Below are positions 720 to 23,970 of a stretch of 25,380 bases of DNA, in pieces; positions within the stretch are counted from its first letter, which is position 1, and each line of letters begins with the position of its first letter. Both the position numbers and the translations under genes were made by a program. Under the pieces are notes generated by a model. The model saw nothing but the letters and a program-made list of their open reading frames with translations. It had not been told where the DNA came from and did not search any database. The stretch is from positions 1 to 25,380 of the IMG/VR virus record IMGVR_UViG_3300023240_001054; one strand, 5' to 3'. This stretch comes from a virus. Lineage: Duplodnaviria; Caudoviricetes.

Positions 720-3700
720 TTATTTTTCTAAAATTTCTGATAAAGGTAACTGTAGTGCAACATCATCTGTTATAATTTTCTTTTCCATGTACTCTTGAAA
801 CAGTTCTAATCTTTCTTGCAATGTATTTAATTTAAGCATCTGTTTTGTTATTTCTTTTGATCTAGCTTTATTAGAAACACCTAGATTAAGTAGTGTCTGG
901 TCTCTGTCTGTAATACCAAGCGAGTCATCCTGCACAGCGTCAGCCATAGAGTCAAGTAAAGTAGGATATTTTTTTACCAACTGAAGAATTTCAGACGCCG
1001 GCGCTTCTCCAGAGTTTAAAGCATCTAGTGTTTGCCTAGCAAAAGAATCACCGTCAAAATATTTTTGAGCTTGTTTACCTGAGTACTTTCCAAACAACAA
1101 TGCTTGCACATTTTTCTTAAAGTCTCCACCTACGTTGAATTGAGGTAGCTCATCTTTTGTTTGAGACTGCCCTTCTTTTATAGATTGAGCGCCTCCTACT
1201 GTTTTCTTTACTTGAGAACCTCCAAACGGTAATGCTATTTTATATAAAGGATCAGACAGTGCTTTTGTAGAAAGTAAACCAGAACCAAAACGAGAAGGAT
1301 CACCAGCTCCAAACAATTCTTTACTTGTTGGAAGTGTGACACCATTAATATCAGCTCCATACTTAGGGTAAGCAGAAGCTATCGATTGACCGAAAGGAAC
1401 GTTTGATAGTACTTCACCTGCAATCCTACCAAAAGCATTTCGTACCCCTTTGCCGTCAGGATTTTCTACCACCTCACCTACAGCGTCCCGCATTGCATTA
1501 ATAGGATCAAAGGCAACCCTGTTTCCTGTAACTTCTTCAGTAGCGCTATTCATTAAATAAATAGAAACAAACAAAGTAGCAAAAGCATTTAACTTTTTTA
1601 GCATTGTTTTATTATCTGTATTTAAGTCTTCCATCGCCCACCATAAGTTACCTACCTCAAGTTGAAAAGGGGCTACTACTTGAAACACTTGAGATTCTTG
1701 TATTAAAGGTTTTTCACCAATACCACGCCCCGCTACAAGCTTCCTAGCATTAGTATCAGCAAAACGTATAGCCTCCTTACTCATAGGTTCTAATCCTTGC
1801 TCTAAAGCTTTTTGATATTGACCGTTCCATATAAACCTTGTTCCGGTTTCATCAAGAACTGTTACCATCCACACAGCAAACTTTTTAGGCTTGTTTAAAA
1901 AGCTTTCATCAAAACTATCAAATGATTTAAAGTATCGTTCTTTTAAAAAGTTTGAAGCTGCTTGCTCAGGGCTTTTAATAAAAATTTCAGAAAGAGAAGG
2001 TCCGATAGCTTTTATAGAGTTAACCTTACCAGCGCTTGCTACACCTTGAGGTACGTTAAAAATTTGAGAAATAGATGAAGAAGCGTTCATTAATATAGTG
2101 TTAGCCTTTACTCTGTTGTTAAGCCAGTTCACTGAAGCCAGGGCCTGTCTTCCGACCAATTCATTTACAGCCCTGTCTAACCCTGGAGTTTTTCCAGCTA
2201 GTATGTTTGTCCAGTTTTCAAGACCCTCAATATAGTTATTTAAGTTTTTTGTTTTACGTGTACTTTGTGCCATAACCTCAGATAAACCTCTAAACTTACC
2301 AATGTGCGGATCTATATTAATAGCGTACCCTGCACTTTTAATGTACTCCAAATAACCTTCAAGCGCTCCCAGCTCGTTGGAGTTTCCAAGTCTTCGTTGT
2401 TTAAACGAAGCCCACTTAGTTAAAGGTTTTGTATCGGCTGTCTTACCTGCCAGAAGAGGATCAATCTTGATCGGCTTTTCAAAAATGTTTTGTAGTCGGG
2501 AAAAAGAGTTGTTGTTTGCCACTCCGTGTTTGTAGTAATTTTTAAGTTTTGGTAGCCACTTCTCTGGGTTATTAGGATAAATGTCTTTTAGCACAGTGTT
2601 AATTTCATCACTCAACCTATTGTAATTATTCCTAAAGAAAGAATCAAATTCAACAATTTGGCTAGCTCTTTCCTGCCCGAACCTTTCCACGAGAGTTTCT
2701 TTTGTTATTTTCTTTTCACCAAAATCACGAATAGCGTGATCTACTTTCCCTCCTGGTTTAAACTTCATTGTTCCAAACAAGTTTTTCCTTACACTTTCTA
2801 ACTCCATATTAAAAAAGTCAATCAAATCACCTTTAGACTGATCAAATGGCGCAAGAAATTCTTTATCAATAATAGAAAAATCTTTTCCAAAAACCTGTTC
2901 CGAGTTTCTGTAAATATCTCTTGCGTTCTCTTTAATTTTTCCTATGTCTTTATATTTACTTGCTCTTGCATCGATACCAGAACCTCTTATTGTTTCTCGA
3001 GCTATCATAACCTGATTAGGAAACTCGGTTGGTTCAGGTAGAATGTTGTTAAAATCATTAGCTTTTTCTACGGCGTCTCTTGCACTTAATATTTGGTCTT
3101 GTATACTGTCTGTATATGAAGAACTTTCTTGTGAATTTAATGCTGGGACTTTTGACCCTTCTATATTACCCCTACTTTCTGTCAACGGTACTGGGGACTG
3201 TGTTGCTGGTGCGACTGATGTGGTTGATTCAGAAAGAGTTTGGTCTGTACCGAGAGAAGAGCTTCCACTCATGGTTTGACCGTTTTTAGTTTGTATAGTT
3301 AGAGTTTCCCCTCCTTGACCAGCTTTAGCTTGTCCTTTTATTGCTTCTCGAACATCCATACCCATACTCTTAAGCTCACTTACTTTTTTATCAGGATAAA
3401 TATCTTTCAGGAAGTTCAAATAGCCAGCTTCTGCTTTACTAGCTGTTTGTCTTGCTACAATATACAAAGCCTTATCTACGTCGCTTTCAAATTTAAGTGT
3501 GTATGACTTGCTCCCGTAATTGTAACGAGGCTTTGCTCCAGAAAGAGACTTAGGTAATCTAGCTGGTGTATTACCTTTCTCAACGATAGCTCTCTCTCTT
3601 GCAGTGAGAGCTAGTGGTCGTCCTTCTGCGCTAAACTTAAGATGGCTTTTACCTGTAGGTTTTGGAGCTTGATCAATTAAATCATCTAAGAACTTCATAG

Positions 3701-5033
3701 TAAAAGGATCGTCAGAAACGTCAATCTCTTTTTTTAGATTACTAATAACCTCCTGTGTTATAACGTGGTCGCTAGATCTGTTTTTAACAAAATCAATCAT
3801 TGATTGATAGATACGTTTTTGATTTTTTCCAACAGGAACTTTACCTGCTGTTATATCTTCAGCAGCGCGTACATTAGCAGCAGATTTTAAATCATCAGGA
3901 AGAAAGTTAGGAAAGACACCTTTGTTTCTAGTTCTTACACCTTCTAGTGTTTCAGAAAGTTGACCACCTTTTACAGCTGTATCTAATTCAGTAAAAATAC
4001 CAGACACTGAGTCTTGTATAGATTGACTGACTGCTACAGAGTTTGATCCAAAGCCAACAGGCTCAATAGGTCGAACAGATAGTCCAAACGCAGGTCCTTG
4101 TCCAGGAACTGGACGGTATCCCGGCAATGCTCCAGCTGAAGCAGGTCGAGTTCCACTGTTAGCTACGCCAGCTAACTTAGCTGCTTCTTTTTCACTTACC
4201 CCAAACATCTTTCCTAAGAAACTTGGTTTAGCAGAAACAAGATCGAACCCTTTAAGGAACTCGACCTTTTGTTTTGTGTTCATTGCCCCCATCTTTTCAC
4301 TAATAATGTTTGTGACTTTTGGTGACAGACCTAATTGTTGTGCTGACTGTCGTCCAGAGAAATAATCAAACAAGGTCTTCCTAGATACGTTCTGGATCTC
4401 TCTTTCAACTAAACGTGTTGGTGTAAACTTCCGTAACCCTGCGCCCGTGACTGCCTTAACAGGGCTAGCGATCATAACAGCGTCAAGAATCCCACTTATT
4501 AAAGTGCTTGAATAAGCTTTTTTCTCTGAAACTCCAGAGGCCAAAGCGTCGTCGTACATCTCTTGAAAACTACTTGCATTAAGTAAGGAGTCGCCAGTTA
4601 AAGGGCCTTTTGTTTTTAGTTTAGGTAACGGTTTTCCACCAGCTAGTTGCTTGCTTGAAGATAAGAAGTTCCACCCAGCGTTTACAACAGGGGCTATGAA
4701 CTGTGCAGGTAATTCAGCAACGGTTCCAAAAGTTATGTCTTTCATTTGTGAGGCAGGTTTGCTGGTCGGTAACGGGGTTGGTTTAGGTATGCCAAACGAT
4801 GTAGCTTTTTTAGAAAGATTATCTACTATACCTGGAGATGTTTGAGTGTTTTTATAAAGACTACTAAGGTAATCAGGTGTCTTCATTGGAGTTCTTTTAG
4901 GTCCAATAAAAGGAGTTTCCTTAGGTGAAGGAGAAGTAATACTAGATTGCACGGGGCCTATAAAAGGCACCTTGTTTTGGCTGGTTTGATCTAGTCCTGT
5001 TATTCGCCTTAAGTCATCTAAGAATTTTACCAT
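720..5033 (-). CDS. Large internal virion / DNA ejection protein (large polyvalent protein-like, T7 gp16 position)
   Basis: 1437 aa; last and largest of three genes after the tail genes; low-complexity P/S/T/K N-terminus; helical C-terminal half with hydrophobic segments (AFATLFVSIYLM, LSNVPFGQSIA, IALPFGGSQ). Assignment from synteny and composition. Confidence 0.65.
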   Translation of the reverse strand: MVKFLDDLRRITGLDQTSQNKVPFIGPVQSSITSPSPKETPFIGPKRTPMKTPDYLSSLYKNTQTSPGIVDNLSKKATSFGIPKPTPLPTSKPASQMKDITFGTVAELPAQFIAPVVNAGWNFLSSSKQLAGGKPLPKLKTKGPLTGDSLLNASSFQEMYDDALASGVSEKKAYSSTLISGILDAVMIASPVKAVTGAGLRKFTPTRLVEREIQNVSRKTLFDYFSGRQSAQQLGLSPKVTNIISEKMGAMNTKQKVEFLKGFDLVSAKPSFLGKMFGVSEKEAAKLAGVANSGTRPASAGALPGYRPVPGQGPAFGLSVRPIEPVGFGSNSVAVSQSIQDSVSGIFTELDTAVKGGQLSETLEGVRTRNKGVFPNFLPDDLKSAANVRAAEDITAGKVPVGKNQKRIYQSMIDFVKNRSSDHVITQEVISNLKKEIDVSDDPFTMKFLDDLIDQAPKPTGKSHLKFSAEGRPLALTARERAIVEKGNTPARLPKSLSGAKPRYNYGSKSYTLKFESDVDKALYIVARQTASKAEAGYLNFLKDIYPDKKVSELKSMGMDVREAIKGQAKAGQGGETLTIQTKNGQTMSGSSSLGTDQTLSESTTSVAPATQSPVPLTESRGNIEGSKVPALNSQESSSYTDSIQDQILSARDAVEKANDFNNILPEPTEFPNQVMIARETIRGSGIDARASKYKDIGKIKENARDIYRNSEQVFGKDFSIIDKEFLAPFDQSKGDLIDFFNMELESVRKNLFGTMKFKPGGKVDHAIRDFGEKKITKETLVERFGQERASQIVEFDSFFRNNYNRLSDEINTVLKDIYPNNPEKWLPKLKNYYKHGVANNNSFSRLQNIFEKPIKIDPLLAGKTADTKPLTKWASFKQRRLGNSNELGALEGYLEYIKSAGYAINIDPHIGKFRGLSEVMAQSTRKTKNLNNYIEGLENWTNILAGKTPGLDRAVNELVGRQALASVNWLNNRVKANTILMNASSSISQIFNVPQGVASAGKVNSIKAIGPSLSEIFIKSPEQAASNFLKERYFKSFDSFDESFLNKPKKFAVWMVTVLDETGTRFIWNGQYQKALEQGLEPMSKEAIRFADTNARKLVAGRGIGEKPLIQESQVFQVVAPFQLEVGNLWWAMEDLNTDNKTMLKKLNAFATLFVSIYLMNSATEEVTGNRVAFDPINAMRDAVGEVVENPDGKGVRNAFGRIAGEVLSNVPFGQSIASAYPKYGADINGVTLPTSKELFGAGDPSRFGSGLLSTKALSDPLYKIALPFGGSQVKKTVGGAQSIKEGQSQTKDELPQFNVGGDFKKNVQALLFGKYSGKQAQKYFDGDSFARQTLDALNSGEAPASEILQLVKKYPTLLDSMADAVQDDSLGITDRDQTLLNLGVSNKARSKEITKQMLKLNTLQERLELFQEYMEKKIITDDVALQLPLSEILEK
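3080..3107 (+). promoter_or_regulatory. Putative antisense sigma70 promoter TTGCAC-N16-TATACT
   Basis: TTGCAC at 3080-3085, TATACT at 3102-3107, ATG 8 nt later at 3116. Confidence 0.5.
3116..3289 (+). CDS. Putative 57-aa membrane microprotein nested antisense in the ejection gene
   Basis: MKNFLVNLMLGLLTLLYYPYFLSTVLGTVLLVRLMWLIQKEFGLYREKSFHSWFDRF: MK start, ~35-aa hydrophobic stretch, charged tail. It is preceded by a promoter-like element and overlaps an S/T/P linker of the host protein. Confidence 0.45.
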   Translation: MKNFLVNLMLGLLTLLYYPYFLSTVLGTVLLVRLMWLIQKEFGLYREKSFHSWFDRF

Positions 5034-6012: not shown

Positions 6013-6972
6013 TTAATTATATAAATCTGAGTATGAAATTCCTTTAGCTTTACGCTTTGACGCTTCTTGAACGTTTTGGTTTCGCAATGCTAATCCAGCA
6101 GCTTCTTGAGCTTGTGGAATACTCCCTAGCTGATAAGTTCCCGGTGTGTAATTTGTATCCGCCTGACCTGACTGTGCAAATCCTCCCTTGCCTGCCAGTG
6201 AAGCTGAATAGTTATTTAGAGAAGGTAGATTAAATCCTGCTGCTCCGTCTGTACCTAAGTTCTTTTCAAGGTTGCGAGAATAATCACCAAGACTATTTCC
6301 AGCAGCTGAAGACAACGAAGAAAGGTTTCTGTTCTGTTCAGCAAGTGCGTCCTGTTCTTGAGCGCCTCTTACACCGCTGAACGTTGTACCTGATCCTGCG
6401 TTTCGTTCTCTAGAGTTTTCTAAGTTACGCCCGAAGCTTGCTTCAGTGCTTGCAATACGTGAGTTATAATCATCGATAGTTAGGTTAGCATTTCTTAAAG
6501 TGTCTTCTTTTAATGCATCTATTTGTTGAGCGTACTCAGGAGCAACTGTTTCTTTTGCTTTATCAAGTATTTGAGCAATAACATCAGCTGTAAGATCCAT
6601 GTCTGGTTTAACAGCTAGGCCCTGATTTTGCAGTTGGTTTAAGTAAGGAACAATAGCATTGTTCATAAAGTTAGCATCCTCTTCATTTTGTGTTTGATAA
6701 GACTGACCATTAACAACTACTGTATTTCTACTAGGTTCTGGTGTGCGGTTTCGAGAAGGCTTGCGATCAGAATTAGAACCTCCTGAAAGCTTTCCTCGAG
6801 TTATTGGTCCCACAATACCATCAGCCGCAATGTTTTGCCTTGACTGATATGCTCTTACAGCAGCTTGAGTTTTTGGACCGAAGATTCCATCAACTTTTAC
6901 TCCAATTTTTCTTTGAAGTTCTTCTACTTGTTTTCCTCGAGAGCCTACTTTTAATTGTTGTGTTATCGCCAT
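6013..6972 (-). CDS. Peptidoglycan-binding (PG_binding_1-like) putative ejection/internal virion protein
   Basis: LKVGSRGKQVEELQRKIGVKVDGIFGPKTQAAVRAYQSRQNIAADGIVGPITRGKL is a typical three-helix PG-binding domain; the remainder is A/S/N/Q/G-rich and helical. Confidence 0.78.
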   Translation of the reverse strand: MAITQQLKVGSRGKQVEELQRKIGVKVDGIFGPKTQAAVRAYQSRQNIAADGIVGPITRGKLSGGSNSDRKPSRNRTPEPSRNTVVVNGQSYQTQNEEDANFMNNAIVPYLNQLQNQGLAVKPDMDLTADVIAQILDKAKETVAPEYAQQIDALKEDTLRNANLTIDDYNSRIASTEASFGRNLENSRERNAGSGTTFSGVRGAQEQDALAEQNRNLSSLSSAAGNSLGDYSRNLEKNLGTDGAAGFNLPSLNNYSASLAGKGGFAQSGQADTNYTPGTYQLGSIPQAQEAAGLALRNQNVQEASKRKAKGISYSDLYN

Positions 6973-6981
6973 ATTACTTAT

Positions 6982-6990
6982 ATTATACCA
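6982..6990 (-). promoter_or_regulatory. Extended -10 promoter TGGTATAAT, 9 nt before the ATG of the first ejection gene
   Basis: Plus strand attatacca at 6982-6990, in the short intergenic gap. Confidence 0.6.
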
Positions 6991-12518: not shown

Positions 12519-15125
12519 TTATGCTTCCTGTGAAATAGCTATTAAGTCCCATTTAGTATCTGCAACGTTGTATTTGAATCCAACATATAATGTTTTACTG
12601 ATAACAGTTGTAGTAGGAAGAACTTGACCTACAGCTCGGAAGATTGCGTTCCACGCTAACACTCTAGCTGTTCCATTGTCTTTAATTCTTATAATTAGTG
12701 TGTTTTTATCTGTCAGTGATATTACTGAGGTTGGTACTCCAATCGTATCTGCTACTGCAAGCGCTGTAACCGTGTGAGTATGTCTTGTTCCCGCAATAGC
12801 GACTACTGTTGCGGCGCTTGAAGCTTCTGTAGTTGATCCGTCCGTCGTTACGGTAATTCCTTCGATTGCAACCACTCCTGCAGCTGTACGTGAAAGCGTT
12901 GTATCTGTAGCCGCTCCAAGTTCGATAGTTGTAAATTGAGGTGCTGTAAGAGAAGAAAGGATAACAGTCCCTCCTACTGTCGGCATGTTTGTTGATTCAA
13001 TGTCTGTAGCCCATAGCTTTGTTACACGTGTACCAGTTACCCCAATAGAACCTGACATTGTAATATCATTAGTTCCAAGAGCTAAGTTTCCACCTGAGAC
13101 TGTAAATCCTCCTGTTGCAGTTTCTACTGTTATATTACCTGTACCATCAAATGATACACCTCCGATTGTTCTAGCATCTTCAAGTGCTGTAGCTGTAGCT
13201 GCGTTACCTGTAACAGAACCAGCTATTGCATTAGTTACCTGTAAATCTGTAAACCAACCTTTAGTTATTCGAGTTCCTGTTGAACCAATATCTCCAATTA
13301 ATTGTAAATTAGAACCATCATAAGTAAGTCCTGAAGTTCCTTCAATTGTTCCGTCTCCTGTCCACACACCTACTTGGTTGTCTACTGGTGTACCTACTTT
13401 AGAAACATCTCCAGATCCTGATGGAGTTGCAAAACTTGGAGCTGAAGATGCTCCGTTTGATTTTAAGAAAGTTCCATCTGAACCTAGAGCAAGTTCGGTA
13501 ACATCCCCGTCTGTATTTGAATAAAAGACTCTCCATGCTGTTTGATCAACAAAGTCTGTAAGGTCTGAGTAATTCTTTAAAGCGGTACCATTTACTGTTG
13601 GCATGTTTGTAACTTCCAAGTTTGTAAACCAACCTTTAGTTATCCGAGTTCCTGTTGAACCAATATCTCCAGTAAGTTGAAAATTAGAACCATCGTAAGT
13701 AAGGCCTATAGTTCCCTCAATCGTTCCATCACCAGTCCAGACTCCTATTTGGTCGTTTGCTGGAGTTCCAACTTTAGAAACGTCACCAGATCCTGATGGA
13801 GTTGCAAAACTTGGAGCTGAAGATGCTCCGTTTGATTTTAAGAAAGTTCCATCTGAACCTAGAGCAAGTTCGGTAACATCCCCGTCTGTATTTGAATAAA
13901 AGACTCTCCATGCTGTTTGATCAACAAAGTCTGTAAGGTCTGAGTAATTCTTTAAAGCAGTACCACCTACTGTTGGCATATTTGTAATTTCCAAGTCTGT
14001 AAACCAACCTTTTGTTACTTTACTTAAAGCGCTTCCAAGATCACCTGAAATTACCAAATTGTTTCCATCGTAAGTAAGTCCTGAAGTTCCTTCAAGTGTT
14101 CCATCTCCAGTCCAGACTCCTACTTGATTATCTACTGGCGTTCCGACTTTAGAAACGTCACCTGAACCAGCAGGTACAGCAAAGCTTGGAGCTGCAGAGG
14201 CTCCGTTTGATTTTAGGAAGGTTCCATCTGAACCTAGAGCAAGTTCGGTAACATCCCCGTCTGTATTAGAGTAAAAGACTCTCCATGCTGTTTGATCAAC
14301 AAAGTCTGTAAGGTCTGAGTAATTCTTTAAAGCAGTACCACCTACTGTTGGCATGTTAGTAATCTCTAAGTTAGTGAACCAACCTTTAGTTACTCTGTCT
14401 CCAGTAGTAGCAAGTGAGCCAGTCATAGTTACATCGTTTGATCCCACGTCAAGGTCTACACCTGTTAGAGTTACTGATGAATCGTCTATATTGAATATAG
14501 TTCCACTAGCTGACTCAACAGAGAGTCCTGCGGTTGACTCTATTTTTACTTTATAAGATGAACTATCTGCTTTGTTTCTAGTTGACAGTTCAATAAGTTG
14601 GTCGTCATCAGTAAATGAATTTTGGATAGCAATACCTGCTTGACCTTGGTCTTGATTGTCTGAAAAGTCCTGAGAACCAATTATCATAGCATCACCAGAA
14701 AAACCAATAGGTGATAGGTCTCCAAATAGAAATCCAGTTTGTATATCTGTGGTTGCTGTGTTTATGTAGAGTGTTGCATGTCCCTTAAGAGGAAAACCTA
14801 AACCTAAAAGGTCTGCACTTGTGTCTTCTAACACTACCCCACCTGTAAAGTTGGTTGAAATCTTAAGTTTAGAAGAACTCCTCACAAAGTCTGTACTCCC
14901 CGCAAGAGTCCCGTCTCCTGTCCAAACTGCGACCTGCTCGTTTACTGGAGTACCAACTTTAACAACATCACCAGTACCTGCTGCTGGTGTTGAGTTTTCA
15001 AATGTAGTAGGTCCTGTTTTGCGAATATACTCACCTGCAGGTGAAGTATTCAACGCAGTTAAGTTAGCTAACGCAGTTGCTTCTGAAGTTGTGTTTTGTT
15101 CTCCACGGACGGATAAATTACTCAT
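12519..15125 (-). CDS. Fibre protein (head or tail) with three 125-aa tandem repeats
   Basis: 868 aa, G/T/S/D-rich; fibre motifs GNAATATALEDARTIGGVSFDGTGNIT and LALGSDGTFLKSNG; C-terminal beta domain LIIRIKDNGTARVLAW...WDLIA. Confidence 0.85.
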   Translation of the reverse strand: MSNLSVRGEQNTTSEATALANLTALNTSPAGEYIRKTGPTTFENSTPAAGTGDVVKVGTPVNEQVAVWTGDGTLAGSTDFVRSSSKLKISTNFTGGVVLEDTSADLLGLGFPLKGHATLYINTATTDIQTGFLFGDLSPIGFSGDAMIIGSQDFSDNQDQGQAGIAIQNSFTDDDQLIELSTRNKADSSSYKVKIESTAGLSVESASGTIFNIDDSSVTLTGVDLDVGSNDVTMTGSLATTGDRVTKGWFTNLEITNMPTVGGTALKNYSDLTDFVDQTAWRVFYSNTDGDVTELALGSDGTFLKSNGASAAPSFAVPAGSGDVSKVGTPVDNQVGVWTGDGTLEGTSGLTYDGNNLVISGDLGSALSKVTKGWFTDLEITNMPTVGGTALKNYSDLTDFVDQTAWRVFYSNTDGDVTELALGSDGTFLKSNGASSAPSFATPSGSGDVSKVGTPANDQIGVWTGDGTIEGTIGLTYDGSNFQLTGDIGSTGTRITKGWFTNLEVTNMPTVNGTALKNYSDLTDFVDQTAWRVFYSNTDGDVTELALGSDGTFLKSNGASSAPSFATPSGSGDVSKVGTPVDNQVGVWTGDGTIEGTSGLTYDGSNLQLIGDIGSTGTRITKGWFTDLQVTNAIAGSVTGNAATATALEDARTIGGVSFDGTGNITVETATGGFTVSGGNLALGTNDITMSGSIGVTGTRVTKLWATDIESTNMPTVGGTVILSSLTAPQFTTIELGAATDTTLSRTAAGVVAIEGITVTTDGSTTEASSAATVVAIAGTRHTHTVTALAVADTIGVPTSVISLTDKNTLIIRIKDNGTARVLAWNAIFRAVGQVLPTTTVISKTLYVGFKYNVADTKWDLIAISQEA
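13230..14400. repeat. Tandem repeat, period 375 bp, ~3 copies, inside the fibre gene
   Basis: The anchor aaagtctgta ends at 13560, 13935 and 14310; 13411-13583 is identical to 13786-13958. Confidence 0.95.
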
Positions 15126-19241: not shown

Positions 19242-19270
19242 AAAAACAGCCCTTTACTGGGAAGGGCTGT
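19242..19270 (-). terminator. Intrinsic terminator-like hairpin whose loop pairs with an upstream junction
   Basis: ACAGCCCUU-CCCAGUA-AAGGGCUGU followed by UUUUAAUU; perfect 9-bp stem, short U-tract. Confidence 0.55.
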
Positions 19271-21771: not shown

Positions 21772-23970
21772 TTATTTCTTATCAACGAATAATCCTCCTA
21801 ATAGATTTTTCCCAGTTGGTGCGCTAATTTGTTCACGTGGAACCACTGTAGGTGACAACTGTTTTGTGTTTCCAGTATTACCTTGCATTGTGTGGCCTTC
21901 TTTTGCTCCTGTTTGGTTAGTCGTGTCTTGAATTTCTGGTGCTGGTGTTTCTTGTTCCTGGTCAATAACTCTTGTGTCTTTCAAGAGAGCTTGTCCAACA
22001 TCTGTATTAGCATCTGCTTTAACACTTACACTTATTTTTGGTTGCTCAGGTGCTGGAGGTGCTGGAGGTGCGGGAGGTTGGAACCATGCGTCAGGTAGCC
22101 AATCTTTTGGATCCTCTTCATTTACTTTACATAATTGAATTGCTGACTTCATTACAAGTTCAGGTGGTTGCTGTAATAGTGGAATAAGCATGTTTGCCAT
22201 TTCCGTCTTCATTTGCTTCATAATAGTTTCAGACTTATCAAGGATTGATCGAGGGATAACTTTAAAGATTCCCTTCCAGTTAAGTTGATCAATAGAGATT
22301 CCTGATCCTATTTGGAAATATTTATTCTTATCAGACTCAAATAGTTTACCGTCTTCTTCGTCTAGCTTAAGTGAAAGCTCGGGTAGATACGTTGCTGTTA
22401 CACCTTCTTGCTCTCCTGTCTCTTCGTTGTTTTTAGAAAATAATTCATTACGTTCGATTTGATTTTCTTTTTCAAAAGCAATCATTTCAGATTCGTTACC
22501 GAACTCTTTTACTTCTGGAGTTGAGTAGATTTGTTTCATCCACGATAGTGTAACGTATGCGTCTTGTTCGATAGCCCATGCGATGTTATCTAATGGAACC
22601 TTTAGTCGTTTTAGTGAAGCCTCTCTAGCAAGCTGCACTTCACCAAGAGTCTTTCCTGTAATTTCACCTTCTAGTGTTGGTGAAATACCAGAGCTTCCGT
22701 CAATACGGCTCTGTCTATAATCTAATCCTTTCCAAGCTTCAGCTCCGGGACCAGGAATTTCCATCCAATCAAACTTACCATTTGTAATTTGTTGTGACTG
22801 CCCTGGAACGATTTTAATAACTCCATCTCCAAGTACTCCTGATGTACCTGTATGAAATCCGAACTTCATAATAGAAAGTACCAACTGGTCAGACGTCATA
22901 TTGTCCATTTTGTCGTACAATGCTTTATCTTGTTTAATGATCTTCCAGATTGAGATACCGTAAGGGCTATCTGAACTACGAAGAATCCATGGTGTGTGCC
23001 ATAGAGAAAGATATCCATCATCATTAGGAAGTGGGCATTTGTGTAGAACTATATCTCCTATAGGAACTACAATAACGTAAGTATCTTTAAGTCTATTTTC
23101 GTAGAATCCAATAGTTACAATGTCCGAACGTTCAGCTGAAACATCCCCGTCTTCTTTTTGCCCATTCTTTTCAAAGTCGTATGAGACCTTAGAGTTTCTT
23201 TTAATGTATTTAAAATTTTCGTATTGTCCAAACTCTACTTCAGCTTCGTCGTAAGAATAGTCCATCTCGTAGTAACAATCATTTGTTGAGTACGTGTTGT
23301 AAGGTTTTGTTTGTTCGTCTATCCATGTTTTGTATGGAGACATTCTTTCTTTAGCAACGTCGTTAAACCAAACAAGCTCCTTGGTTTCATAAACATTATT
23401 TTTTGGATCTGCAGAATCGTACTCAGTAAGTATGTCTTTTTTGTAAGCAATCTTCTTAGGAAACGATCTTCCAACTGCCCATCCGTATTTTAGTAGGTCA
23501 AAAATGAAAAGGCGTAGCACTTGCTTCGAGTCGGTAACAGCCCAGTTTCTTTTCCACAGTGCATAAGCAATTTGAGTATTAGCTTCATACTTTTTAGAAA
23601 GCTCAGTAAGCATTCCTTCTGGATCATTTTCAATCAATACAGAAAAAGCTGTTTGGATTTTAACCAACAGAGAAGGTGAAGAGTTATTACTCCTCCAGTT
23701 TTGTGTTTGATCTCCAATAGGAACCATTCGAGAACGTAGTCCTGTATCTTGGTCTTGTTCAAATCTTTTTTTAGTTGTACCTAGTTCTAATTCGTGAGGT
23801 ATGTATTCAGAATCAGCTTCTTTCCAGTCTTTTTCAACACCTAAGCTAGCACGATAAGCTTGCATAGCATCCTTTCGTTTTTTAACAAAGGACTGCAGCT
23901 TTTTCTCATCCTTATCAGGATTATATATTTTAACTTTTTCTTCTGGTTCTAGATCTTTTGTTTTTTTCAT
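21772..23970 (-). CDS. Portal protein (P22-like, long)
   Basis: 732 aa directly after the terminase; motifs DLLKYGWAVG, SPYGISIW, SSGISPTLEG, KTLGEVQL. Confidence 0.85.
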   Translation of the reverse strand: MKKTKDLEPEEKVKIYNPDKDEKKLQSFVKKRKDAMQAYRASLGVEKDWKEADSEYIPHELELGTTKKRFEQDQDTGLRSRMVPIGDQTQNWRSNNSSPSLLVKIQTAFSVLIENDPEGMLTELSKKYEANTQIAYALWKRNWAVTDSKQVLRLFIFDLLKYGWAVGRSFPKKIAYKKDILTEYDSADPKNNVYETKELVWFNDVAKERMSPYKTWIDEQTKPYNTYSTNDCYYEMDYSYDEAEVEFGQYENFKYIKRNSKVSYDFEKNGQKEDGDVSAERSDIVTIGFYENRLKDTYVIVVPIGDIVLHKCPLPNDDGYLSLWHTPWILRSSDSPYGISIWKIIKQDKALYDKMDNMTSDQLVLSIMKFGFHTGTSGVLGDGVIKIVPGQSQQITNGKFDWMEIPGPGAEAWKGLDYRQSRIDGSSGISPTLEGEITGKTLGEVQLAREASLKRLKVPLDNIAWAIEQDAYVTLSWMKQIYSTPEVKEFGNESEMIAFEKENQIERNELFSKNNEETGEQEGVTATYLPELSLKLDEEDGKLFESDKNKYFQIGSGISIDQLNWKGIFKVIPRSILDKSETIMKQMKTEMANMLIPLLQQPPELVMKSAIQLCKVNEEDPKDWLPDAWFQPPAPPAPPAPEQPKISVSVKADANTDVGQALLKDTRVIDQEQETPAPEIQDTTNQTGAKEGHTMQGNTGNTKQLSPTVVPREQISAPTGKNLLGGLFVDKK

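Follow-up and report, generated by a model that had tools for sequence, protein, structure and literature searches.

Does a gene of the virion cluster of a tailed phage carry a second gene on its other strand? The question is raised by the stretch of 25,380 nucleotides analysed here (the window), positions 1 to 25,380 of the IMG/VR virus record IMGVR_UViG_3300023240_001054 (Duplodnaviria; Caudoviricetes). On its minus strand lies a gene for a 1437-amino-acid (aa) protein, hereafter the enclosing gene, and opposite this gene a 57-aa open reading frame (ORF) follows a promoter-like site. A first-pass annotation, made from the letters alone, had proposed the ORF as an exclusion or immunity gene overprinted on its cognate ejection protein. 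In this study, homologs of the enclosing gene were compared for the site, the frame and the pattern of substitutions. Judged from these sequences, the ORF very likely belongs to a real, unannotated antisense gene family under selection, and it is highly probable that the antisense frame is a real translated gene. The features needed for the argument are as follows.

Positions 720..5033, minus strand: enclosing gene, 1437 aa, downstream of genes for a peptidoglycan-binding (PG-binding) and a LysM protein, within a portal-terminase-capsid-tail cluster
Positions 1044..3122, minus strand: conserved helical core, about residues 638-1330, of the polyvalent-protein C-terminal type and likely an ejection protein
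Positions 3123..3290, minus strand: unconserved linker rich in S/T/P/Q, residues 582-637, carrying the antisense ORF
Positions 3080..3085, plus strand: TTGCAC, weak -35-like hexamer (3/6 match), coinciding with the complement of the Ser650-Ala651-Arg652 codons
Positions 3102..3107, plus strand: TATACT, -10 box 8 nucleotides (nt) before the ATG, complement of Ser643 (AGT) and Ile644 (ATA)
Positions 3116..3289, plus strand: 57-aa antisense ORF; its product is predicted to be a helical hairpin in the membrane, ending in a charged and aromatic C-terminal tail
Positions 3119..3163, plus strand: predicted hydrophobic helix 1, residues 2-16 (AlphaFold2 and hydropathy)
Positions 3188..3241, plus strand: predicted helix 2, residues 25-42, with the family tryptophan W36 (AlphaFold2; TGG aligned with relatives)

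The antisense site and chance in this genome

The arrangement reported in the first-pass annotation, with 16 nt between the -35-like hexamer and the -10 box, 8 nt from there to the ATG and a stop codon ending at 3289, was confirmed. Of the promoter proposed there, the -10 box and its spacing hold up but the -35 hexamer does not, and a promoter scan of the window found no excess of sites over shuffles and did not list the antisense site. As independent evidence the -35 box was rejected, because its TTGC is the complement of an Ala codon in the conserved motif Q-x-x-I-L-x-A-R of the enclosing protein. TTGC is likewise present in L052, a relative without the ORF; other homologs have TTGCRY (L004, L007) or TGGCAT (L101) at this position. 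The site might have been a protein shadow, because ATG, -10 and -35 all coincide with the first conserved motif of the core, residues 639-652. The near-leaderless spacing does match the sense promoters of the phage, as had been claimed (four window genes have TATAAT 6-11 nt before the ATG), but three of these four sites bear an extended TGn, which the antisense site lacks.

The codon usage that had first drawn attention to the ORF was found again. The reported stretch of sense codons without a terminal T comprises codons 603-618 and is part of an 18-codon run (602-619), the longest in the gene, which mostly coincides with the coding stretch of helix 2. GCT makes up 63 of the 113 Ala codons gene-wide, and all three Ala codons under the ORF are GCA. 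Sense position 3 is antisense position 2, as the original argument held; in the comparison of the family members, T occupies the latter at a frequency of 0.49 inside the overlap versus 0.33 gene-wide.

Hydrophobic antisense ORFs do arise by chance, and for this genome taken alone the caution is justified. In 2000 synonymous recodings of the enclosing gene, an antisense ATG ORF of at least 45 aa with a hydropathy (KD19) of at least 1.8 appeared in 0.32 of cases, and in 0.0085 when a -10 box 5-11 nt upstream was added. A run of at least 18 non-T-ending codons anywhere in the gene arose in 0.16 of 5000 recodings. For ATG, TATACT and at least 45 open codons at a fixed position P was 0.00064, the position having been picked after the fact. 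An equally long, hydrophobic antisense ORF also occurs somewhere in 49 of 134 homologous genes, mostly in another frame. By these counts the window ORF on its own is weak and within chance range, and it is the homologs that raise the case above chance. Two other antisense ORFs were discounted as probable shadows: 3315-3506, and 3043-3279, which lies in the frame where chance ORFs are most common.

Recurrence of the site and frame in homologs

From 173 fetched loci, 135 distinct enclosing genes were retained, the window's included, with core identities of about 30-52% for the 134 homologs. In 25 of these 134 genes the -10 box, N8 and ATG were found in the same antisense frame inside the variable linker, at 24 to 331 residues before the core. 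The box is kept while the residues of the enclosing protein beneath it vary (S-I, T-I, I-I, N-I). The S-Y/N-x-x-S-I signature of the enclosing protein was seen in the homologs P0004, P0009, P0016, P0028 and P0126, but not in P0006, P0007, P0008, P0011, P0014 and P0015.

Scanning the antisense strand of all 135 genes for TAnnnT-N8-ATG, with the linker taken as the 250 residues before the core, yielded 27 linker sites, 23 of them in the window's frame. Fourteen of these 23 open an ORF of at least 40 aa with KD19 of at least 1.3, compared with 3/47 sites elsewhere. When the enclosing proteins were kept fixed and their codons redrawn in 100 recodings, 2.06 ± 1.38 such ORFs were expected in 121 homolog linkers (maximum 6), and 17 were observed; for transmembrane (TM)-like ORFs of at least 19 aa the numbers were 1.77 and 21. 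As a background, 242 promoter-pattern matches listed in 240 other viral loci led to 5 small hydrophobic ORFs, 1 of them nested, and two DNA-pattern scans of viral contigs revealed no new family member among the 240 loci listed.

With the genes anchored at Q645 of the enclosing protein, the antisense ATG is in register in 5/13 homologs; four of these are open for 47-56 hydrophobic aa and L011 for 16 aa. In the 8 homologs without the ATG, the frame closes within 3-21 codons. At the Q645-equivalent position L068 has GATACT-N8-ATA and a closed frame, and L011 has GATACT-N8-ATG before its 16-aa ORF; both sites are apparently decayed, and the record of L011 has an integrase. The sister of the window on the tree is L004 (support 91), in which a 56-aa ORF follows TTGCGT-N16-TATACT-N8-ATG.

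No relatives between about 54% and 100% aa identity were found; two cluster mates each have a single residue changed, at a place outside the overlap, and no sequence variants were seen in contigs of 4 of the 21 listed runs. No additional enclosing gene was found in 300 further genomes of the phylum of G009, and among annotated phages one distant, unannotated record was found.

Selection on the antisense frame

Frame-blind nucleotide alignments of the ORF region placed 45 of 120 pairs in register. Mismatch in the overlap was 0.49, 0.39 and 0.56 at antisense positions 1, 2 and 3, which correspond to positions 1, 3 and 2 of the enclosing gene; in the core the same procedure (78 pairs) gave 0.41, 0.30 and 0.62 at positions 1, 2 and 3. 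In the overlap, the third position of the enclosing gene is thus the most conserved and the second the least. Because codon-position conservation is reversed relative to the core, the alignments indicate that purifying selection acts on the antisense frame. Alignment z-scores above 3 were reached by the antisense peptides in 33/120 pairs and by the sense peptides from the same DNA in 2/120, although the peptide scores may partly reflect the common two-helix pattern.

These results bear on the view that the ORF is a shadow of the enclosing gene, that is, a frame that arose by chance or is decaying, on the strand opposite an S/T/P-rich linker, with a box that is the complement of an S-Y-x-x-S-I motif. 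The frequency of such ORFs in recoded genes and in other frames of the homologs fits this view, as do the apparently decayed sites of L068 and L011 and the weak scores of the window peptide against the family (see below). It does not account for the excess over recodings that preserve the protein, for a box that stays while the residues beneath it change, for the inverted substitution pattern, or for the same site and an ORF of nearly the same length in the sister L004, and we consider it quite unlikely.

Another explanation places the function in the antisense transcript, which would keep early read-through of the ejection operon low, through interference or through pairing, with the peptide as a by-product or RNA stabiliser. 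The -10 region is the most conserved element and persists with ORFs of 16-27 aa (L011, L062, L067, L097, L098, L135), sense -10 boxes lie upstream at 6016 and 6982, and from the ORF to 4169 the plus strand has no listed terminator-like site. However, the sparing of antisense codon position 2 by substitutions and a recurring W-x-L-[RH] motif with a distal Trp are unexpected for a function at the RNA level; moreover, the RNA fold of the region is no better than that of shuffles (z 0.56), and no Rfam family matches. A functional transcript is therefore a very unlikely alternative to a coding gene.

The peptide family

Of the 25 sites, 16 encode peptides of 42-73 aa with two hydrophobic helices (two of the 16 have three), and 7 encode single-helix peptides of 19-53 aa; the remaining two are L069, cut by the contig end, and L011. 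Single-helix peptides of 19-27 aa, with the same promoter and frame, were observed in the linkers of L062, L067, L135, L097 and L098, and this short class may be a second family or consist of truncated forms.

The consensus of 26 sites, the window's included, is TGnTATAcT-N8-ATG. An extended -10 TG at -17/-16 occurs in 21/26 sites, although the scans had not demanded it, and T at -17 occurs in 24/26, at a position that is synonymous in the enclosing gene. Initiation signals are thus conserved in the family. A hidden Markov model (HMM) of 14 members recovered the held-out L019 (E 5e-5) and L072 (E 8e-5) and gave weak hits to L069 and L070, each of the four in the frame and region of the family; in a six-frame search of the 135 loci it found no copy outside the enclosing gene at E<0.3, a match in L053 that abuts the locus edge being counted as inside. 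A tight subfamily shares G-x-x-L-W-x-L-R and a distal Trp, and in leave-one-out comparisons 11/16 peptides beat all 300 shuffles.

The window's copy is, on the sequence comparisons, a divergent member. It is counted as one because of its position, frame and spacing, its sister L004 and its aligned Trp, the TGG matching the W of W-K-L in L004, L101 and L007.

AlphaFold2 predicts helices at residues 2-16, 25-42 and 50-56 of the window peptide (mean predicted local distance difference test, pLDDT, 68; predicted template modelling score, pTM, 0.37). Together with the hydropathy of 26 members, this hairpin predicts a small integral membrane protein, as in the exclusion class. Pfam and PHROG gave no meaningful match for the window peptide or the 14 members, the PHROG hits for members (two at E 0.055, one at 0.0022) all being unnamed and single-member. 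The called-protein collections held no match to the peptide, Foldseek against BFVD returned none at E<=1e-3, and the best values in the ESM Atlas (0.76 and 0.81) are leads only. No description of the family was found in searches of the openly accessible literature.

A small membrane toxin or lysis-timing factor, similar to type I toxins or to antiholins and pinholins, was considered as well, with the late sense mRNA acting as antisense control. Size and one- or two-helix topology suit such classes, and overlap with a late mRNA would provide automatic shut-off. The exclusion protein Imm of phage T4 is itself said to resemble a holin (PMC6832632). None of the 14 members matched a holin or type I toxin family in Pfam or PHROG, however, and elsewhere on its sense strand the genome has a cassette resembling a lysis module, which comprises a transglycosylase and holin-like small membrane ORFs. 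An early promoter of host type would also give the wrong timing for a holin. We regard this explanation as unlikely.

The enclosing gene as a probable ejection gene

The first-pass annotation had called the enclosing gene a DNA-ejection gene, which receives moderate support from a polyvalent-protein fold and a weak match to the PhiM1 ejectosome. The model of the core is confident (pLDDT 84), and its comparison with BFVD gave 62 hits at E<=1e-3 (best E 6.5e-19, TMq 0.74), several of them named polyvalent proteins; the core thus shows the fold common to polyvalent-protein cores. Among 48,161 PDB representatives, the top match was the PhiM1 ejectosome chain 8vb2_A, at a modest Z of 5.9 (root-mean-square deviation 5.7, 230 aligned residues; other listed rows at most 119). 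Against the assignment it counts that this Z lies under the tool's reliability level for helical folds and that Foldseek of the core against the PDB gave no match at E<=1e-3. A sequence search of the core for solved ejectosome proteins found nothing relevant. Based on these models, the enclosing gene likely encodes an ejection protein.

Polyvalent proteins are predicted to be packaged and injected (PMC5512222), and gp47 of phi24B has been proposed as an ejection protein (10.64898/2026.04.10.717836). The core fold matches the region shared by large polyvalent proteins; the window's protein differs in having no Pfam domain, and the accessible parts of PMC5512222 and 10.64898/2026.04.10.717836 mention no nested antisense gene. 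The homologs bear variable N-terminal domains, namely PBECR5 and, from precomputed assignments, PF18760, PF18796 and PF04002. A polyvalent pattern of swapped N-terminal domains (PF18814, PF18760, PF18796, PF04002) was observed in P0033, P0073, P0076, P0082 and P0119, and genomes of Bacillota contain members of the protein family as well.

Genome setting, distribution and lifestyle

The window is a virion cluster, encoded entirely on the minus strand, in which terminase, portal, capsid and tail genes are followed by the PG-binding, LysM and 1437-aa genes. The same genome is also represented by a record of 40.9 kb (95% complete), in which putative early genes, including one for an anti-restriction-like protein (E 2.7e-4), lie on the strand matching the window's plus strand. 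The window's DNA was found in salt-lake metagenomes, and no RNA data set was listed among those containing it. Two sense -10 boxes lie upstream of the enclosing gene.

Positions 6016..6021, minus strand: TATAAT, sense -10 box 7 nt before the LysM gene; its transcript would converge on the antisense site
Positions 6982..6987, minus strand: TGG-TATAAT, 9 nt before the PG-binding gene

Late genes with their own TATAAT (mostly with TGn) 6-11 nt before the ATG start at 23970, 21164, 6972 and 6008 (minus strand) of the window, and own TATAAT boxes occur likewise at L175:1701 and L175:3219 (plus strand), in AT-rich upstream regions. Such spacing suggests that the structural genes may be transcribed gene by gene and leaderless.

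A tree of the enclosing genes was calculated with FastTree, 9/135 being left out for short cores. All carriers of the ORF in the tree fall within one 77-row clade (support 92). None of the 45 genes on the Bacillota-prophage side carries the ORF; on the other side, 26/77 genes with at least 120 residues before the core do so, where the 9 genes missing from the tree, at least one of them from Bacillota, were counted by default. On the 115-row tree, the 22 carriers need 15 state changes.

Some contigs of the carrier clade were assigned to bins of Moraniibacteriota, Parcubacteria, Daviesbacteria and Gracilibacteria, and the carrier L168, outside the tree, was binned with Paceibacterota. The host assignment is not fixed by this, because bins of Bathyarchaeia, Gammaproteobacteria and Phycisphaerae occur in the clade too. 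Among 112 ORFs of Patescibacteria-bin stretches, 32 have -10 boxes at 6-11 nt and 12 have Shine-Dalgarno (SD)-like sites (8/9 fetched stretches, a phage contig omitted and chromosomal origin assumed for the rest), and among 111 ORFs of Bacillota prophage loci the numbers are 2 and 42. The near-leaderless site therefore fits hosts of the Patescibacteria type, where -10 boxes are common and SD-like sites few.

Tyrosine integrase (PF00589) was detected in 2/15 records, the provirus L024 and L011, and in none of the 6 records that are at least 90% complete and have an intact ORF, which would also be compatible with plasmid-like lysogeny. Resolvase (PF00239) was found in 0/5 records.

Free-standing antisense small membrane ORFs of moron-like appearance, with a leaderless-type -10, lie by the ejection-type cluster (minus strand) at L006:1269, L064:1785, L107:697, L021:609, L052:6807 and L014:6786; the five scanned (all except L021) had no PHROG match. 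The idea that such genes replace the nested one received no support, as they occur in 8/43 non-carriers and 2/15 carriers (p=1). Antisense membrane-anchored ORFs of 122-136 aa upstream of the enclosing gene were observed on the minus strand at L028:473, L030:376, L032:1141, L033:740 and L039:1140. They belong to a subclade linked to Moraniibacteriota and Parcubacteria, have leaderless-type promoters and by eye resemble S26 signal peptidases.

Proposed superinfection exclusion and related systems

For the function of the peptide, our tentative explanation is that a small membrane protein is made early and blocks the DNA entry of related phages (superinfection exclusion). By analogy with known systems, we give this somewhat less than an even chance overall, and a nearly even one if the gene is taken to be real. 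A small membrane protein made early, and retained inside the gene for the probable membrane-crossing conduit, would most simply act in this way. Immediately on DNA entry, the promoter-like site would be transcribed by the host polymerase with a sigma70-type factor. The site has the orientation of the putative early genes, and a nearly leaderless message would be in keeping with a host that has few SD sites. At the cytoplasmic membrane, the peptide could then block the ejection conduit of an incoming phage, like T4 Imm or P22 SieA. A more specific version, in which a widespread clade probably infecting Patescibacteria (candidate phyla radiation, CPR) encodes its exclusion gene antisense within the ejection gene that it blocks, the linker being largely the shadow of this gene and the family missed by gene callers, is doubtful.

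Several points weigh against the exclusion model or the gene beneath it. The function is assigned from analogy, size, topology and location, and the similarities of microprotein and core are weakly correlated (Mantel rho 0.29, p 0.052, n 15). The first-pass annotation had described the ORF as inseparable from the ejection protein; this is contradicted by 51/77 linker genes on the carrier side without a called ORF, including the close homologs L003, L005, L051, L052 and L068. No ORF was found in 19 newly fetched enclosing genes (15 nearest Bacillota-side rows, 4 others), and non-carriers do not have free-standing antisense membrane genes more often than carriers do. In the survey, thresholds were chosen after the data had been seen, and the counts include near copies (L009/L017, L013/L069/L022, L097/L098) and are to that extent inflated. 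The window peptide reached 5.5 bits in the leave-one-out comparison, with 10/300 shuffles as good, its best pairwise z was 2.6, and its site lacks the extended TG. The term overprinted remains plausible, and an in-frame insertion of a small cassette is compatible as well.

Alternatively, a real early membrane microprotein might target a membrane machine of the host (phage receptor, pilus assembly, transporter or protease), the linker housing the gene only as the sole unconstrained stretch of a compact late region. All evidence for the reality of the gene, from frame enrichment and the recoding test to the TG consensus and the codon-position pattern, fits this as well, as do the variable placement before the core, the three size classes with one, two and three helices, and the weak co-divergence with the core. 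Some small phage proteins are known to prevent the assembly of pili. Against a host target, neither the six-frame searches nor the called proteins revealed a free-standing copy, and the frame is kept in one gene across lineages at about 40-50% core identity. A host target is thus a possibility of low probability, though a less remote one than a toxin or lysis factor.

Among known systems, P22 SieA is the model that the first-pass annotation had drawn on, and its escape mutants map to ejection proteins (PMC10883804). Superinfection exclusion as proposed here would likewise set a membrane protein against the ejection conduit of related podoviruses; SieA differs in being a prophage-expressed protein of 162-164 aa with three TM segments (PMC10883804), compared with 42-73 aa encoded antisense inside the putative target gene. 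With 57 aa, two predicted helices and no Pfam or PHROG match, the window peptide is not a member of the SieA family, which is defined by homology to types A-C, about 160-210 aa and 3-4 TM segments. The SieA gene is free-standing, as is that of T4 Imm, a protein of about 80 aa with two hydrophobic segments from a contractile-tailed phage. Imm, which as a membrane protein of a lytic phage excludes secondary phages by blocking the translocation of their genomes (PMC6832632), is the small membrane protein closest in size and lifestyle, but the peptides described here match no Pfam or PHROG family. The SieA-type prophage model is weakened by these differences in size and topology and by the integrase counts. 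Because six near-complete carriers show no tyrosine integrase, exclusion, our best guess for the function, would be closer to that by Imm of the lytic T4 than to that by the prophage protein SieA.

In Pseudomonas phage Fc02, olg1 and gene 10 are likewise opposite-strand overlapping genes with small products and exclusion activity, but their overlap lies in the lysis-lysogeny control region and involves small genes, not a large virion gene (PMC9936078). Homology to olg1 was examined via the PHROG and Pfam scans. The spanin gene Rz1 likewise encodes a small membrane protein, is conserved and lies entirely within another phage gene, Rz. It differs in lying on the same strand, encoding a lipoprotein and being read from a late transcript; the ORF described here is on the opposite strand with its own promoter-like site, and the window peptide has no lipobox cysteine.

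The functionality of prokaryotic antisense ORFs is debated, and few antisense genes that lie wholly inside another gene have clear evolutionary support. Of the annotated viral overlaps, 6.6% are antisense (PMC8903798). The family described here is recognisable by a reversed codon-position pattern and a conserved promoter-like site, and it is missing from the searched protein collections. The combination of a -10 box, N8, ATG, a fixed frame and a disordered linker offers a search recipe for hidden genes in other phage virion genes. If exclusion is true, immunity and target would be encoded on the two strands of one locus; if the CPR-phage version is true, lock and key would travel in one DNA stretch.

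Further observations in the window

Within an 868-aa tail-fibre-like protein (12519-15125, minus strand), a unit of about 125 aa occurs three times in nearly identical form, and three matching terminator-like hairpins on the plus strand result from these repeats. Segments of this protein are also found in the one that starts at 716. Also, a strong GC-rich terminator-like hairpin was observed at 19246-19270 (minus strand), just upstream of a 283-aa scaffold-like gene.

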